Below are positions 3,125-23,914 of a DNA stretch of 44,231 bases, one piece after another. The notes beneath the pieces are model-generated. The model did not search any database. It saw only the letters and a program-made list of their open reading frames with translations, and had not been told where the DNA came from. The translations under genes were made by a program, and so were the position numbers. How positions within the stretch are numbered: the first letter of the stretch is position 1; every line of letters begins with the position of its first letter. The DNA lies in the NCBI GenBank assembly GCA_023135855.1, contig JAGLSH010000001.1:1-44231 (forward strand). The letters are read 5' to 3'. The stretch is from Candidatus Omnitrophota bacterium (GTDB taxonomy: Bacteria; Omnitrophota; Gorgyraeia; Duberdicusellales; 4484-171).

Positions 3125-3931
3125 CTAATTAAGAAGTTTTCTATATTCCTCTAATATCTTTAGAGTAACTTCTCCCGGCATACCTTGACCTAATAATTTA
3201 TCATCACACTCAACTAAAGGCATTACCTCCATTAAAGAACTAGTTATAAACGCCTCCCGGCAATTAAATAAATCTTCCAGAGAAGCTTCTCCTTCCTTTA
3301 GATCAATATTTAATTTTTCCAAAATGTTTATAACTAATCCCCGAGTAATCCCGCAAAAAGCACCATCTTCTATTGAAGGAGTAATAACTTTATTATCTTT
3401 AATTAAAAATAAATTACTTCTTGAGCCTCCAGCCAATACTCCTTTAGGGTTCAAAATTAAAGCTTCACTCTTTTTCTTCTTCTGAGCCCCAAACCAAGCT
3501 AATCTATTAGGTAAATAACTTAAAGACTTAACCTGAGAACAAATATTCTTACTACATCTTCGATGAGAAGAAACGGTTGCATCAAACCCTTTTTTGTAAG
3601 TGTCTTCCTTATAATATTCAAACTTATCTACATACATAAGCATTCCCACTCCTTGTCTCTTCTTATAAGCAGTTATTCTTATATAAGCATCTTCTAAGCC
3701 ATTCTCAACTAACAGGTTATGAATTATACTCTGCCAATCTAAGTCAACTTCCCCTATTTCCAGAAGAGTTAAGCTCCTGTCTAAACGTTCAATATGAGAG
3801 TTAAGAAAAGGAATCTTCCCCTTGTAAGCTCTTAAGACTTCAAATATTCCCCAACCAAATAAAAATCCCGGCTCAAAAACATCAGCCAAAGACTCCTTAT
3901 TAATCACCTCTCCATTGTCGTAAACTTTCAT
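3125..3931 (-). CDS. Class IV (fold type IV) PLP aminotransferase / aminodeoxychorismate-lyase-like
   Basis: 268 aa. VKSLSYLPNRLAW (PLP Lys context), GGSRSNLF and GITRG motifs are typical of the BCAT / D-aminotransferase / PabC family. Confidence 0.8.
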   Translation of the reverse strand: MKVYDNGEVINKESLADVFEPGFLFGWGIFEVLRAYKGKIPFLNSHIERLDRSLTLLEIGEVDLDWQSIIHNLLVENGLEDAYIRITAYKKRQGVGMLMYVDKFEYYKEDTYKKGFDATVSSHRRCSKNICSQVKSLSYLPNRLAWFGAQKKKKSEALILNPKGVLAGGSRSNLFLIKDNKVITPSIEDGAFCGITRGLVINILEKLNIDLKEGEASLEDLFNCREAFITSSLMEVMPLVECDDKLLGQGMPGEVTLKILEEYRKLLN

Positions 3932-18782: not shown

Positions 18783-20220
18783 TGTCAACCACATTTAAAA
18801 ATGTCCCTTTTTTACACATTTAGAAATATCCCTTTCATGTTGTAATTAGTTCCTTCTCAGACGCTCCCGCCTTTTGACCTTCCAATACACTTTTCATTGC
18901 CATTAACCTCTTGTATGTTTCTGGTCTGTTCCAAGAATAATTTTTTGCCGGCTTATAGGCTATTTTGTTGCGTTTCTTTGTTAAATCCTTATTAGCAACT
19001 ACTGGATTGCGCTGGACTATTTTTTTATATTGTAAAGTTCTACCATTGTGAACTATCCTCAACCGTTCCTTTGTGTCAATTTCAATAACTACTTTCTTCG
19101 CATTTGTTTTATCCAGTATTTGATATAAGTTGTTATTGTAACGGACGGTAAAATCATTGTATACGGTTCGTTTAATCTTAATACATAATGTCCTGTTTAA
19201 GTTTACTCCTTGAAGAAGTTTTTAATAAAAGCTATCTTCTTTTATCGGTTGTATGCAAAACTGTTTATTGAATTTGGTTAAATATTCATTGTCTAAAAAA
19301 TCGTTCGCATCAGTTATTGTTGAAATATTGCGTAATCGCAATTCTTTTACCAACCTATCTTGAACGGTTTCAAATAAACGCTCAACTCTACCTTTTGCTT
19401 GGGCTGAATGAGCAAAAATAAGGTTAACTCCCAACTCCTCTAAAGTTCTCTGAAATTGGCTTTTTGACTCTTTACCTTTAAGCTGTTCTTCAACTGTAGG
19501 TTCTTTGGGACTCTTATATGTTGTGTGTTTATCGCAATATACTGCCACTGGGAGACCGTTCTTGCGGATAAACCGCCTGAAAGCTATCCATTGCTGGAAA
19601 AGTTCCTTCATATTCATAAAAATGCATATAGACTTTATTATTTGCATCGTCTATATATCCCATCAAACAACATTTATCTCGACGACCTTCAAACCAGTCA
19701 TGATGAGACCCATCCATTTGCATTAATTCACCCGGATGATGCATCCTCTCTCTCCAACTTCTATGCTTACGTCCTTTTTTTCGTTTACGCGGAATGCTTT
19801 CAGCGTCCAGCCAATTGCTAAGGGTTTGATCGCTTATTTTTATTCCATGAAATTCTTTCAGTTTTTCGCATGCGTGTATAAGGTTAAAATCATAATATCT
19901 ATCCTGATAAATACCTGTTACGCTATTCCGAAGTTTATCAGGATATTTATTGTTTGGTTCTCGTCCTCTTGACCCATGGATAACGCCTGCATCTCCCTGG
20001 GTTCGCACACGTGAAGCTATTCTTTTGATTTGACGATAACTTAAGACCAATGTCTCGATACCTTTCTTTAAAGACATTATCTTATCAAGAATCTTATGCA
20101 CCACATTTAATCTTTTCAGCTCTTTTTGCGTCATCTAGATCGTCTCCTTTCTTGCCATATACCCTCCTGGCTTAGAAAGCATTATAGCAAGCTAGGGGAC
20201 ATTATCACTTTGGGATGACA
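18783..20220 (-). mobile_element. Decayed insertion sequence (about 1.44 kb) with imperfect 26-bp terminal inverted repeats
   Basis: Left end TGTCAACCACATTTAAAAATGTCCCT (18783-18808) matches the reverse complement of the right end, TGTCATCCCAAAGTGATAATGTCCCC (20195-20220), at 18 of 26 positions, including the terminal TGTCA and the inner AATGTCCC. I saw no clear target-site duplication. Confidence 0.45.
18835..20134 (-). pseudogene. DDE (rve/integrase-core) transposase pseudogene, ISNCY/IS481-like
   Basis: Three track ORFs (19529-20134, 19222-19647, 18835-19062) join into one about 433-aa protein: HTH N-terminus, then ...GELMQMDGSHHDWFEGRRDKCCLMGYIDDANN..., then ...VYCDKHTTYKS...AHSAQAKGRVERLF. 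One frameshift falls within 19529-19647 and one in-frame TAA at 19222-19224. The 1300-nt length (3n+1) fits a single 1-nt indel. Family name is from memory. Confidence 0.8.
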
Positions 20221-20230
20221 GACTTTTTCA

Positions 20231-20258
20231 TTGACTTACACACTAATAATGTTACTAT
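20231..20258 (+). promoter_or_regulatory. Candidate outward (Pc-like) promoter feeding the cassette array
   Basis: TTGACT (20231-20236), a 16-nt spacer ending in TG (extended -10), then TACTAT (20253-20258). Lies between the IS end and the first GTTATGA (20302-20308). Confidence 0.35.
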
Positions 20259-20330
20259 TCCAATAGCAGTAAAAGATAAAATGAATAGGCGTATATTAAT
20301 TGTTATGATTAAAAAATAAAAGGATAAAAA

Positions 20331-20711
20331 ATGAATATTATCATACCAATACTAAGTGCTCTATTCGGATTAATCTTTGGTCATTGGTTAAATCGTAGGC
20401 GAAATTTTGAAAACAAAAAAAGGGAAATTCGCATCAATTATCTTATAGAAGCCTACCGGAAACTCGAAAGGGGAGCTATCCCAAACGCTAAAAATTTTGA
20501 TAAAGGGGATTTCGAAAGTGCGATTGCAGACATACAAATGCTTGGCAACCTTGAGCAAGTTAACATCGCTTATGAGTTTGCTATTAAGGCGACTCAAGGC
20601 GATGGCTCGAAATTGCAAGAATTACTGGAAAATCTCCGAATGGAATTAAGAAACGAATTATCAATCAAAAATAATAAATTACCAAAGATAAGCCCGTTTA
20701 GGATAAACTAA
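20331..20711 (+). CDS. Cassette ORF 1: hypothetical protein with one N-terminal TM helix
   Basis: 126 aa. MNIIIPILSALFGLIFGHWL is hydrophobic and is followed by a helical soluble part. No family recognised. Confidence 0.6.
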   Translation: MNIIIPILSALFGLIFGHWLNRRRNFENKKREIRINYLIEAYRKLERGAIPNAKNFDKGDFESAIADIQMLGNLEQVNIAYEFAIKATQGDGSKLQELLENLRMELRNELSIKNNKLPKISPFRIN

Positions 20712-20720
20712 TAGATAAAA

Positions 20721-20785
20721 TCATAACAACTCAATCCACCTGACCAAAAAGCTGCTCTTTTCGGCAGGTGATTTTTGTGTTATAT
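20721..20785 (+). repeat. attC-like site 1
   Basis: ATAACA (20723-20728) pairs with TGTTAT (20778-20783). CCACCTG pairs with CAGGTGA. Ends in GTTATAT (20779-20785). Confidence 0.6.
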
Positions 20786-20825
20786 GAAAAATAAATTTAA
20801 TAAAAATAAAAAGGAGGTGATGTAA

Positions 20826-21014
20826 ATGGTTAAATATTTACGACACACGTTATTATCTGAAAGCCAAACAGAAATAACTGCTAGAGTTGAAGCCTTGATT
20901 AAAATTCTTGAAAAGAAAGGAATTTTAACAGAAACTATGGTGAATAAAAAAGAAAAAGAAATAAAACAAACCATGATTAATGCTGGTAAAAAGAAAACTA
21001 ATAAAACCATATAA
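20826..21014 (+). CDS. Cassette ORF 2: small Lys-rich helical hypothetical protein
   Basis: 62 aa. Strong SD AAGGAGGTGA 5 nt upstream. The stop TAA (21012-21014) is embedded in the ATAAC of attC 2. Confidence 0.55.
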   Translation: MVKYLRHTLLSESQTEITARVEALIKILEKKGILTETMVNKKEKEIKQTMINAGKKKTNKTI

Positions 21015-21074
21015 CAAGTCAATGCACCCAACCTTTTCCGCCGCTTCAAAGGTGGGTGATTTCGGGCGTTATAG
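21009..21074 (+). repeat. attC-like site 2
   Basis: ATAAC (21011-21015) ... GTTATAG (21068-21074). CACCCAACCTTT pairs with AAAGGTGGGTG with one unpaired base. Shares a 28-nt identical left arm (21020-21047) with attC 3. Confidence 0.65.
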
Positions 21075-21086
21075 GAGAAAATAATA

Positions 21087-21479
21087 ATGAAAAAATATCT
21101 ATTTATTCTATCAATATTAATTCTCTCAGGTTGTATATCGACAAATAAAACATTTGTAAATATTGATTATGCTAATGGCATTGATAAATATGAAGCCACT
21201 ACTATGGCAAAAAGGGAAGTAACAAAAAAAGCCATTGAAAGTTATAATCCAAATCAACCTAGAATTATGAGGAATTTAGATACCAAAGTAGAAAAAGACT
21301 ATTGGTTGATTTCTTTTCCAGGAAGAAGAAAAGCAAAAAATCTTTTTATGACCAATTTTTGTTATTTAATCGCGGTAGATAAAAAAACTGGAGCAATAGC
21401 TCTATCTGAAGAAGTAATTATTAAAACGAATATTAAAGACTCTTGTAAACATAGAATTAAAAAATTAAAAAACCTATAA
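21087..21479 (+). CDS. Cassette ORF 3: lipoprotein, function unknown
   Basis: 130 aa. Signal peptide plus lipobox MKKYLFILSILILSGC. SD AGGAG. The stop lies inside the TATAAC of attC 3. Confidence 0.7.
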   Translation: MKKYLFILSILILSGCISTNKTFVNIDYANGIDKYEATTMAKREVTKKAIESYNPNQPRIMRNLDTKVEKDYWLISFPGRRKAKNLFMTNFCYLIAVDKKTGAIALSEEVIIKTNIKDSCKHRIKKLKNL

Positions 21480-21547
21480 CGACCCAATGCACCCAACCTT
21501 TTCCGCCGCTTCGCGGTTCCAAAGGCGGGTGATTTCGAATGTTGTGA
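21475..21547 (+). repeat. attC-like site 3
   Basis: TATAAC (21475-21480) ... GTTGTGA (21541-21547). The left arm at 21485-21512 is identical to attC 2. The right arm is AAAGGCGGGTGATTTCG. Confidence 0.65.
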
Positions 21548-21572
21548 TAAAAAATTAAAAGGAGAAAATATC

Positions 21573-22127
21573 ATGAGAATAAATTCTAAAAAATATCTTT
21601 TTGTATTCATATTAGCTATTTTTATAATGAATGGATGTGCAGCCGTTGGCGTAATTCATACTTCTAATCCCTGGCAGAAAATGCGAGATGCTTATCAAAT
21701 GATGAATTACGGACGATTCTTACGTGCAGAACAGTTTCTAAGAGAAGCAGAAAAAATATTTGAAGAAAAAGAAAATGACCATGGAATTGCAGAAGCTTAT
21801 TTTTCTCTTGGCAATATGTATAAAAATAACCACGAACATAACACATTGCAAGATACAAAAAAATCCAGAGAATGCTTTGAACACGCTCATAACCTATTTA
21901 GAAAGAATGAAAATTTTATAGGAGTTGCTAAATCATTGTTTGGGCTTGCTAATGCCTATGGTATAGAAAATAATTCATTAGAAAGCTGTAGCCATTATGA
22001 TGAAAGTCTTAATGCCTATTATAAGGCAAAGAAGCTAAATCCTTCTGCAATTATGCCTATTATGATAAAAAAATATAAAGATTTCCCTGATATGGTTGAA
22101 GATTATAAAAACCACTTTTGTAAATAA
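21573..22127 (+). CDS. Cassette ORF 4: lipoprotein with TPR-like helical repeats
   Basis: 184 aa. Lipobox FIMNGC. Repeated A..Y..LGN.Y / A....GLANAY helices. SD AAGGAG. Confidence 0.7.
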   Translation: MRINSKKYLFVFILAIFIMNGCAAVGVIHTSNPWQKMRDAYQMMNYGRFLRAEQFLREAEKIFEEKENDHGIAEAYFSLGNMYKNNHEHNTLQDTKKSRECFEHAHNLFRKNENFIGVAKSLFGLANAYGIENNSLESCSHYDESLNAYYKAKKLNPSAIMPIMIKKYKDFPDMVEDYKNHFCK

Positions 22128-22160
22128 ATTTCATTATACAGTACAAATAACCAATAAAAT

Positions 22161-22234
22161 CATAACAAAGCAATACAGCCAACCTAACTCCGCGCCTTCG
22201 TCGCTCCAAAAGCCGCTGATTTCGTATTTAGTAT
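22161..22234 (+). repeat. attC-like site 4 (degenerate distal end)
   Basis: The left arm ATAACAAAGCAATACAGCCAACCT follows the family consensus. The right arm ...GCCGCTGATTTCGTAT is followed by TTAGTAT where the others have GTTrt. Confidence 0.5.
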
Positions 22235-22235
22235 T

Positions 22236-23001
22236 TAGGGGACGGTTCTCCTTGCCCTAGCCCTTACCAACCCAACAAGTTACAAACACACCTTTATAAA
22301 TTTTTAATTTAATTGAAAGAAAAAGCTCTTTTTCTACGTCTATTAAAACGAGAGGTAAAAAAGGAGGTTTTATGCCGCGTCAAGCCAGAGAAATTCCGTT
22401 AACAGGGTATCTGCATATAATAAGCCGGGGGAATAATAAAAGGAAGATTTTTCGTTACGAAAGGGATAAAAAGCAATATTATCTCAATCTTAAAAAGTTG
22501 AACCAGCAAGATAAGGTTAATATTTGCCATTATTGCCTTATGAGTAATCACATACATCTTCTTGTAGAAATAAGGCAAGGAAGTAACCTCTCCAGGTTTA
22601 TGAAACGAATTAATCTTAAATATGTCTATTATTACCAGCGAAAATATACGTATTGTGGTCATCTATGGCAGGGTAGATTCCAATCAAAGATAATCAATGA
22701 CGAACTCTATCTGATACAATGTGGTAAATACATAGAACTAAATCCTGTGCGGGCCGGCAGTGTTGCCTCTCCGGAGGACTACCCTTTCTCAAGCTATCGC
22801 TACTATGGATTTGGTCGAAAAGACTCGCTTATCACCCCAAATCCTTTATATAGAGATTTGAGTGCTCGGCAAGACAAAAGACAGCGTCTATATAGAAATC
22901 TAGTACTTGAAGAGGAAAATGAGTGATAAAAGAAAAAAAATAATGGTATGTTTATAACTAACTGGTGCATAATTGGTTACGGGCGAGAGAACCGTCCCCT
23001 A
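22236..23001 (+). mobile_element. RayT/IS200-like unit bounded by perfect 15-bp inverted repeats
   Basis: TAGGGGACGGTTCTC (22236-22250) and its exact reverse complement GAGAACCGTCCCCTA (22987-23001). The arms continue with imperfect similarity (GCCC...TAACCAA). Confidence 0.65.
22372..22926 (+). CDS. HUH/Y1 transposase, IS200-like, REP-associated tyrosine transposase (RayT)-like
   Basis: YLHIISRGNNK..., HUH motif MSNHIHLLV, GHLWQGRFQSK, catalytic-Tyr region YIELNPVRAG, PEDYPFSSY. SD AAGGAGG. Confidence 0.85.
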   Translation: MPRQAREIPLTGYLHIISRGNNKRKIFRYERDKKQYYLNLKKLNQQDKVNICHYCLMSNHIHLLVEIRQGSNLSRFMKRINLKYVYYYQRKYTYCGHLWQGRFQSKIINDELYLIQCGKYIELNPVRAGSVASPEDYPFSSYRYYGFGRKDSLITPNPLYRDLSARQDKRQRLYRNLVLEEENE

Positions 23002-23005
23002 GAAT

Positions 23006-23914
23006 TTAAGCCCACCAGTACCCTAATTCTTTTAATATTCTTGGTTTATCTTGCCAGTTTTCCAAAACCTTAACCCAAATATCTAAAAAAACTTTTTTAT
23101 TGTAAATTTTTTCAATCTCTGGCCGAGCCTGGCTTCCTACTTCCTTAAGCACTTCTCCAGCTTTACCAATAACAATTCTTTTTTGAGAATTTCTCTTAAC
23201 ATAAATATTAGCTCTTATCGAAACTATCTTTTTTTTGTTGTTGATTTCTTCGATCTCAACTGCTATAGAGTGCGGCACTTCTCGTTTAAGTTGCAAAAAT
23301 AACTTTTCTCTTATAATATCAGCAACTCTGAATTTAAGCGGGAAATCGGTTAAAGCATTAGCCTCATAATAAGGATGGGATTCCGGCAAATTATCTAAAA
23401 GAGCACTTCTTAATTTATCAACATCTTTTCCAGTCTTAGCCGATAAAGGTATATAATAAACTAGAGGGTTTCTCTTCCCTTCCACTCTCTGAGCCCACGA
23501 ATCAATATAAGCATTAAAATATTTAAGCCCTAAATCAATTTTATTTAAAACCATAATTGTTTTAATCTTTTGCCCGGAAATAATCCGCATCAACTCTTCT
23601 TCTTCTTTTCCCGGGCGCCGAGACATATCAACAACATAGATAATTAAATCACAGCCTTCTATGGCTCTTTTGGCAACTGTATTCAAATGCATGGCTAACT
23701 TATCTTCAAAAGAGTGAATCCCAGGAGTATCAACAAAAACAATCTGAGCATTCTCTAAATTCAGAATTCCTTTTATTTGATGACGAGTAGTCTGTGGTAT
23801 CGGGGATATAATGCTTACTTTATTATCTATTAAAGCATTAAGAAGAGTAGACTTGCCAGCATTCGGCCTACCGAGGATAGTAACAAATCCTGACTTAAAC
23901 TTATTCTTTAACAT
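23006..23914 (-). CDS. era: GTPase Era
   Basis: G1 GRPNAGKST, G3 DTPG, G4 NKID, and a C-terminal KH domain (VIGKAG). 302 aa. Confidence 0.95.
   Translation of the reverse strand: MLKNKFKSGFVTILGRPNAGKSTLLNALIDNKVSIISPIPQTTRHQIKGILNLENAQIVFVDTPGIHSFEDKLAMHLNTVAKRAIEGCDLIIYVVDMSRRPGKEEEELMRIISGQKIKTIMVLNKIDLGLKYFNAYIDSWAQRVEGKRNPLVYYIPLSAKTGKDVDKLRSALLDNLPESHPYYEANALTDFPLKFRVADIIREKLFLQLKREVPHSIAVEIEEINNKKKIVSIRANIYVKRNSQKRIVIGKAGEVLKEVGSQARPEIEKIYNKKVFLDIWVKVLENWQDKPRILKELGYWWA

Follow-up and report, generated by a model that had tools for sequence, protein, structure and literature searches.

A 44,231-nt stretch of a contig of a Candidatus Omnitrophota bacterium (hereafter the window) was analyzed around positions 20276-22233, where four small open reading frames (ORFs) on the plus strand are each followed, on the 3' side, by one of four related elements of 65-74 nt that resemble the attC sites of integrons. 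All genes of the window lie on the minus strand except those of a plus-strand block at 20331-22926. The features of the array, in window coordinates, are as follows.

20231 to 20258, plus strand: promoter-like site pointing into the array, TTGACT-16 nt-TACTAT with a TG extension (consensus scan)
20276 to 20308, plus strand: array-start (attI-like) site; left arm ATAAAATGAATA, spacer ggcg, right arm TATATTAATTG|TTATGA
20303 to 20779, plus strand: cassette 1; ORF1 20331-20711 (126 aa), then attC1 20721-20785
20780 to 21068, plus strand: cassette 2; ORF2 20826-21014 (62 aa), then attC2 21009-21074
21069 to 21541, plus strand: cassette 3; ORF3 21087-21479 (130 aa), then attC3 21474-21547
21542 to 22227, plus strand: cassette 4; ORF4 21573-22127 (184 aa), then the degenerate attC4 22160-22233

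In an initial annotation the four ORFs had been described as interrupting a minus-strand region, each with its own ribosome-binding site, two encoding lipoproteins and none having a recognizable function. An AGGA/GGAG ribosome-binding site was found upstream of each of the four, and lipoboxes are present in ORF3 (LSGC) and ORF4 (MNGC). The description was amended in two respects: ORF4 matches TPR_12 (34 bits, cut-off 30), and a fifth plus-strand ORF (22372-22926) had been left out.

The four elements begin with ATAAC at 20723, 21011, 21476 and 22162 (start-to-start spacing of 288, 465 and 686 bp, on one strand), and the pattern ATAACNNNNCAATNCANCNNACC has four matches in the window against 0.12 expected. 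They are built like attC sites: R''/R' boxes, a spacer that stays unpaired, an L stem in which two bases bulge out on the '' arm, and a variable loop. The inverted core boxes R''/R' read ATAAC...GTTAT or GTTGT in attC1-3, as had been claimed for all four. In attC4, R' is TTTAGTA and not GTT, the crossover G is mutated to T and four stem pairs are non-standard; this site is degenerate. The ATAAC contains the stop codons of ORF2 and ORF3, that of ORF2 lying within the R'' of attC2, and a 28-nt arm occurs exactly twice, in attC2 and attC3. Bottom strands fold as hairpins with single-base bulges on the 3' arm. The bulges fall after CAAT and after the 6-bp stem in the model alignment of all four sites, and the extrahelical bases on the bottom strand are G/T in attC1, C/T in attC2-3 and T/T in attC4. 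GTTATGA is present at 20302-20308, immediately before cassette 1, and the start-site crossover lies between G20302 and T20303. The stop codons, the shared arm, the single unpaired bases and the GTTATGA had all been put forward in the initial annotation, and each was borne out.

A loose pattern derived from the four window copies (R'' + L'' + TGATTT) was run against one genome per species (185,579 species). Where a rough calculation would predict fewer than 10 matches, it gave 106, spread over 99 loci and mainly in Omnitrophota, Planctomycetota, Brocadiaceae, Rhodocyclales and Nanoarchaeota. Sites in other genomes or metagenomes that were compared with the window are designated by L numbers. 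GTT, which was absent from the search pattern, follows it by 3-7 nt in 95 of the 106 matches (90%). The alignment of 95 sites reads RYATAAC, spacer, CAAT, bulge, a covarying 6-bp stem, a bulged A, CC, a variable loop and a return arm that ends in GTTAG or GTTAT, with stem covariation UA/CG/GC and GC/CG. The L stem covaries among these relatives (80 double-sided changes versus 27 in shuffles, three stem pairs being compensatory), and its cells are paired in 95.9% of cases versus 17-49% with slid partners.

A covariance model, R1, was trained on these 95 sites, all of them from other genomes and none from the window. In the 44 kb it gave four significant matches, all on the plus strand and each behind one of the four ORFs: attC1 at 64.9 bits (E = 7e-14), attC2 at 61.1 bits (E = 6.5e-13), attC3 at 54.6 bits and attC4 at 38.0 bits. 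The next match in the window, on a different element, had E = 4.3, and no further attC-like elements were found in the 44 kb. Two outcomes had been named beforehand as speaking against attC sites, namely no hits with a covariance model and the same palindromes scattered behind ordinary genes; R1, as a surrogate, gave four significant hits, and no such scatter was seen within the 44 kb. R1 also locates about 80 additional sites in the other loci, in same-strand arrays with cassette-like spacing. Integron integrases adjoin the relatives in three loci (TIGR02249, cut-off 265 bits): L021, an Omnitrophota genome (419 bits), L014 (463 bits) and L040 (483 bits). As an outside control, three clinical class 1 integrons (39 kb) were scanned, and the IntI1 query was 100% identical to these records. 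Four of the five highest-ranking R1 matches fell on genuine attC sites, those of aadA5, arr-3, aac(6')-IIc and aac(6')-Ib4, with bulge positions alike. Judged on sequence, the four palindromes are taken to be attC sites.

When metagenomes were scanned for the attC2/3 subtype, the sole match was L102, a similar attC behind a different gene and with no integrase. Sites about 88-90% identical to the window attC2/attC3 lie at L078 7074-7139, L093 787-861 and L102 805-878, where they follow unrelated genes in other Omnitrophota metagenome-assembled genomes (MAGs) and a metagenome. The occurrence of attC2/3-like sites behind unrelated genes suggests a shared cassette pool.

The integrase cut falls between the G and the TT of R', so that each cassette begins with the TTRRRY of its own attC. 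The junctions of the window were examined accordingly. GTTATGAT (20302) pairs with ATCATAAC of attC1 at 5/5 positions, GTTATATG of attC1 with CATATAAC of attC2 at 5/5, and GTTATAGG of attC2 with CCTATAAC of attC3 at 5/5; GTTGTGAT of attC3 pairs with ATCATAAC of attC4 at 4/5, with one mismatch. In other arrays the R' of one site and the R'' of the next are complementary at 3.88/5 positions on average, compared with 2.36/5 for a site's own R'' and 2.13/5 for random pairs (1.2% of which are perfect). This complementarity is the footprint of cassettes made by an integrase and records past insertion at G|TT. Terminators, REP (repetitive extragenic palindromic) elements and chance are thereby ruled out.

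An attC-site cluster without an integron integrase (CALIN) comprises two or more attC sites, separated by less than 4 kb and on the same strand, and has no integron integrase close by (Cury et al. 2016, PMC4889954). The window holds four same-strand sites spaced by 288-686 bp and no intI gene or pseudogene in 44 kb; an intI adjoining the array, which marks a complete integron, was not found. The earlier view of an integrase-less, CALIN-like integron cassette array is supported by the architecture of the sites, their family, the context of their relatives and the junction footprints. We conclude, with a probability of about 0.9, that 20276-22233 is a genuine chromosomal four-cassette CALIN in an Omnitrophota genome, inserted by an integron integrase.

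Several points weigh against this conclusion. The training sites of R1 were picked out by a pattern that itself came from the window, which makes the R1 scores there partly circular, and R1 stood in for the IntegronFinder attC model. Its matches on textbook attC sites were weak (E 0.05-0.85). The extrahelical bases of attC2-3 are C and T on the bottom strand, where G and T are canonical, and the folding free energy of attC2-4 is no better than that of shuffles (z = -1.6 to -0.9), being significant for attC1 alone. The outward promoter at 20231-20258, which had been called good, is present as a consensus match only; the density of promoter-like matches is not above that of shuffles (10 versus 12.1), the stretch being AT-rich. 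The integrase search covered the 44-kb window, and present-day mobility is an inference.

On the proposed mechanism, four promoterless cassettes (ORF + attC) would have been inserted successively by an integron integrase. The enzyme cuts inside the AAC of the folded attC bottom strand (G|TT when read on the top strand), and the first cassette would have been joined to the conserved attI-like half-site TATATTAATTG|TT. The cassettes may be read from a promoter in the leader of about 100 nt. The site at 20231-20258 is the candidate cassette promoter, and homologous leaders carry TTGTTT-16-TATAAT (L031) and TTGACA-17-GATAAT (L047) at a similar distance. Cassettes 1-3 could still be excised or reshuffled if an integrase were supplied in trans, whether encoded at another place in the genome or brought in by an incoming element; CALIN cassettes are thought to be able to use an integrase in this manner (PMC4889954, PMC9668308). 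Cassette 4 is probably fixed, because attC4 has lost the crossover G and part of the stem. Gene orientation and GC skew make it probable that the bottom strands of the attC sites are on the lagging-strand template, an orientation that favors folding and goes with small arrays (PMC5371416).

The array start recurs in other genomes. The 15-18 nt before cassette 1 read (CG)TATATTAATTG|TTAT, with the conserved stretch at 20290-20307. With at most one mismatch allowed, this motif was counted 14 times across the 99 attC loci, where shuffles gave 1.6. When G|TTAG copies (located with a motif one base shorter) are included, it is found in 12 loci, in each of them upstream of and co-oriented with the first attC: the window, L031, L035, L047, L050, L054, L078, L080, L087, L091, L097 and L099. 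These are MAGs of Omnitrophota, Planctomycetia and Patescibacteria, and the junction has the form TATATTAATTG|TTA(T/G) and is in most cases next to housekeeping genes, without an intI; the sites are also designated by the sequence TATATTAATTGTTA. The left half of the junction is constant and the bases after G|TT vary with the cassette, matching the R'' of the next attC perfectly in 6 of the 14 sites (the window included). In combining an invariant left half with a right half specific to the cassette, the start appears to behave like an attI junction. It was not seen beside an intact intI in any locus examined.

An interpretation of the start site as an attC-like hairpin was rejected, as the window copy does not fold as single-stranded DNA and its left arm is degenerate. 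Inside the array of L078 (6337-6374), the start motif makes up one arm of a perfect 37-nt palindrome (15+7+15), ATAACAATTAATATG-tattcca-CATATTAATTGTTAT, with a folding energy of -12.7 kcal/mol (z = -8.9); this palindrome may be either a minimal attC or an attI complete with two boxes. In L087 (array orientation) a 40-nt segment with TTGACA and GTCCCCTA occurs twice before the start motif, at about 1377 and about 1953, and one copy stands directly after a truncated attC 5' half.

Searches of the whole window by tblastn with IntI1 and an Omnitrophota IntI gave nothing better than E = 4, so the earlier statement that the window has no intI gene holds, and no relic of one was detected. The array is thus without an intI for more than 20 kb on either side. 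Elsewhere, intI lies downstream of co-oriented attC sites at L021 371-5065 and L058 5700-7822, a layout that is neither that of a classical nor that of an inverted integron. L021 also has a truncated attC 5' half (3559-3580) just before the intI region, and a REP-like TTAGGGACGGTT downstream of intI. Features that adjoin the array in the window are the following.

19222 to 20134, minus strand: frameshifted ISNCY-family transposase pseudogene (overlapping ORFs 19529-20134 and 19222-19647)
20193 to 20200, plus strand: isolated copy of the REP-like octamer TAGGGGAC, with the same core as the repeats that flank the module below
22236 to 23003, plus strand: REP-associated tyrosine transposase (RAYT) module of 768 bp, consisting of a RAYT-like gene (22372-22926) and inverted repeats

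A decayed insertion sequence (IS) had been predicted upstream, at the place expected for intI/attI, and was recognized as the frameshifted ISNCY transposase. Its two ORFs match NCBIfam NF033594 (transpos_ISNCY_2) at 189 and 151 bits, both under the full-length cut-off of 250, and cover profile positions 2-185 and 165-290 of 368. Between the nitroreductase gene and the ISNCY fragments, a minus-strand ORF of 75 aa (18835-19062) has no family match and may be the decayed C-terminal end of the IS.

The alternative that survives best is that the array is the remnant of a complete integron, now an unmobilised fossil, whose divergent intI and most of whose leader were lost through the ISNCY insertion and an adjacent deletion. 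It is a possible history, which we hold at somewhat less than even odds. The pseudogene lies exactly at the place that a divergent intI occupies in a classical integron, and attC4 has already decayed. The leaders of L031, L047, L078, L099 and L050 share an upstream block, GTATTTTCCGATATTAT, which the window leader does not have, and because this block is missing the sequence comparison suggests that the IS truncated the window leader. At L050 a tyrosine-recombinase/IntI fragment that has decayed and contains stop codons (1442-1663; YVFP..PRSGK..AIKRAGIVKETTVHTVRHSFVTYLL) stands directly upstream of the same start motif; it reads away from the array, and about 280 N-terminal codons are missing. 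The leader itself was considered as an intI relic and discarded, since a relic was found at L050 only. Against such a history, no intI relic was seen in the window, as described above, attC1-3 score on a par with the sites of integrase-bearing arrays, and in five other loci (L031, L035, L078, L097 and L099) the start motif abuts housekeeping genes with neither intI nor IS.

A further reading, rather unlikely and offered tentatively, takes TATATTAATTG|TT as the signature of one lineage of integron platforms, in Omnitrophota, Planctomycetota and Patescibacteria, whose attI-type docking site is specific and has no integrase in cis, with cassettes loaded at several chromosomal sites beside housekeeping genes by an integrase encoded elsewhere. 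Insertion at attG secondary sites is a route to integrase-less arrays beside housekeeping genes, with crossover at G|TT (Loot et al., bioRxiv 2022.09.11.507474); all that attG sites have in common is a GWT consensus. The window start differs from attG: to the left of its crossover, at least 11 nt are conserved among unrelated genomes, a sign that the docking site is specific and not a secondary site taken at random.

That the palindromes are REP-type elements of the adjacent RAYT gene is very improbable. The gene directly follows the fourth element, and homologues lie near attC sites in L013, L062 and L087. However, the perfect 15-nt inverted repeats TAGGGGACGGTTCTC that flank it (22236-22250 and 22987-23001) are unrelated to the four elements, and the two closest homologues (80% and 70% identity) have the same repeats, housekeeping neighbors and no attC nearby. 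The four elements have one orientation, stand behind ORFs, measure 65-74 nt and not 20-40, and are confined to the array within the 44 kb; their junction complementarity is explained only by integrase crossover. Least credible of all are intrinsic terminators or chance hairpins behind unrelated small genes, since although one element (20752-20767 plus a T run) matches a terminator scan and all four lie just 3' of ORFs, a T run is present in one of the four, terminator-like sites number two against 2.1 expected, the conserved AAC/GTT boxes, bulge positions and spread over many phyla are not properties of terminators, and the family alignment and integrase linkage refute this view.

The RAYT module abuts the mutated attC4 and the 3' end of era. 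Its gene scores 60.8 bits with Pfam Y1_Tnp and 77 bits with NCBIfam REP_Tyr_transpos (cut-off 80), and its leader is 86% identical to that of the 80%-identical homologue, a gene placed between those of a serpin and HlyIII. Together with the conserved inverted repeats (T)AGGGGACGGTTC on its flanks, the RAYT-like gene makes up a module widespread in Omnitrophota (881 homologues; L103, L108, L013). Targeting of attC hairpins by RAYT as a rule was considered and rejected, given the closest homologues without attC and the module's own conserved repeats. Because its homologues carry the same repeats and no attC, the module is an independent element that happens to abut the array and is not part of the integron. 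The octamer TAGGGGAC has three copies in the window against 0.74 expected, a number reached in 3 of 100 shuffles; its significance is uncertain. The array and the RAYT block are bracketed by inverted copies of the REP core (chance about 3%).

The array is flanked on one side by tRNA methyltransferase and nitroreductase genes and on the other by era and the gene of a PilZ protein, with gatCAB, rpoD and dnaG farther off; it sits in the chromosome, among core genes. G+C is flat across the plus-strand block (0.31-0.36) and equal to that of the host. Rfam and tRNA scans of the window gave no matches. In a second sample (L002, a contig from SRR13892603) an independent assembly contains an identical array (100%), equivalent to window 20722-23095. 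The L002 contig starts exactly at attC1, which suggests an assembly break at a repeat.

The cargo consists of four small proteins without assigned function, three of them membrane- or envelope-targeted, and cargo of this kind is what environmental cassettes typically carry. No function for ORF1-3 emerged from Pfam, NCBIfam, PADLOC or PHROGs, and no convincing match of ORF1-4 to defence-system or phage families was obtained. ORF1 belongs to a large, unannotated and uncharacterized family (806 representative clusters at 50% identity) with the conserved motifs EAYRKLERG and ESAIADIQL.G. Its AlphaFold model (predicted local distance difference test, pLDDT, 96) has a long N-terminal helix and three further helices, four in all, and gave no match in the PDB at E<=0.001; the model is consistent with a membrane-anchored helical protein with an N-terminal membrane helix, to which no function is assigned. 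ORF2 encodes a 62-aa peptide with no assigned function. ORF3, which has no homologue besides itself among 5.8 billion proteins, is predicted to be an orphan lipoprotein, and ORF4 is predicted to be a TPR lipoprotein.

In comparison with known systems, the array is like other CALINs in being small, with four same-strand attC sites, no intI, an adjoining IS, cassettes of unknown function and no resistance genes; 83% of CALINs have fewer than six sites (PMC4889954). It is unlike them in keeping an attI-like first junction that is conserved in other genomes, and in its host, an uncultured Omnitrophota. With sedentary chromosomal integrons (the Vibrio cholerae superintegron) it shares a chromosomal position, core-gene neighbors, host G+C and homogeneous attC sites, but it has only four cassettes and no intI. 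The attC sites of class 1 cassettes (aadA5, arr-3, aac(6')) show the same order of parts: R'' (..TAAC), a 4-5 nt spacer, 3 bp, a bulge, 6 bp, a bulge (top-strand A), stem, loop, return arm, spacer and R' (GTTRRRY). Their sequences are only distantly alike (13-18 bits with R1), and the first bulge is a top-strand G in the window attC2-3, not C.

Integrase-less cassette clusters are common and poorly understood, and it is debated whether they are broken integrons or result from cassette insertion in trans. The locus is a clean example of a CALIN in which each junction bears a crossover footprint, and it comes from a phylum whose integrons are not described in the literature searched. It is a known kind of element; the conserved start site in several uncultured phyla is the one lead that may go beyond routine, and could be tested as a recombination partner. 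If an integrase encoded elsewhere did load cassettes at such docking sites, many of the 'CALINs' of uncultured phyla would be functional platforms and not debris.

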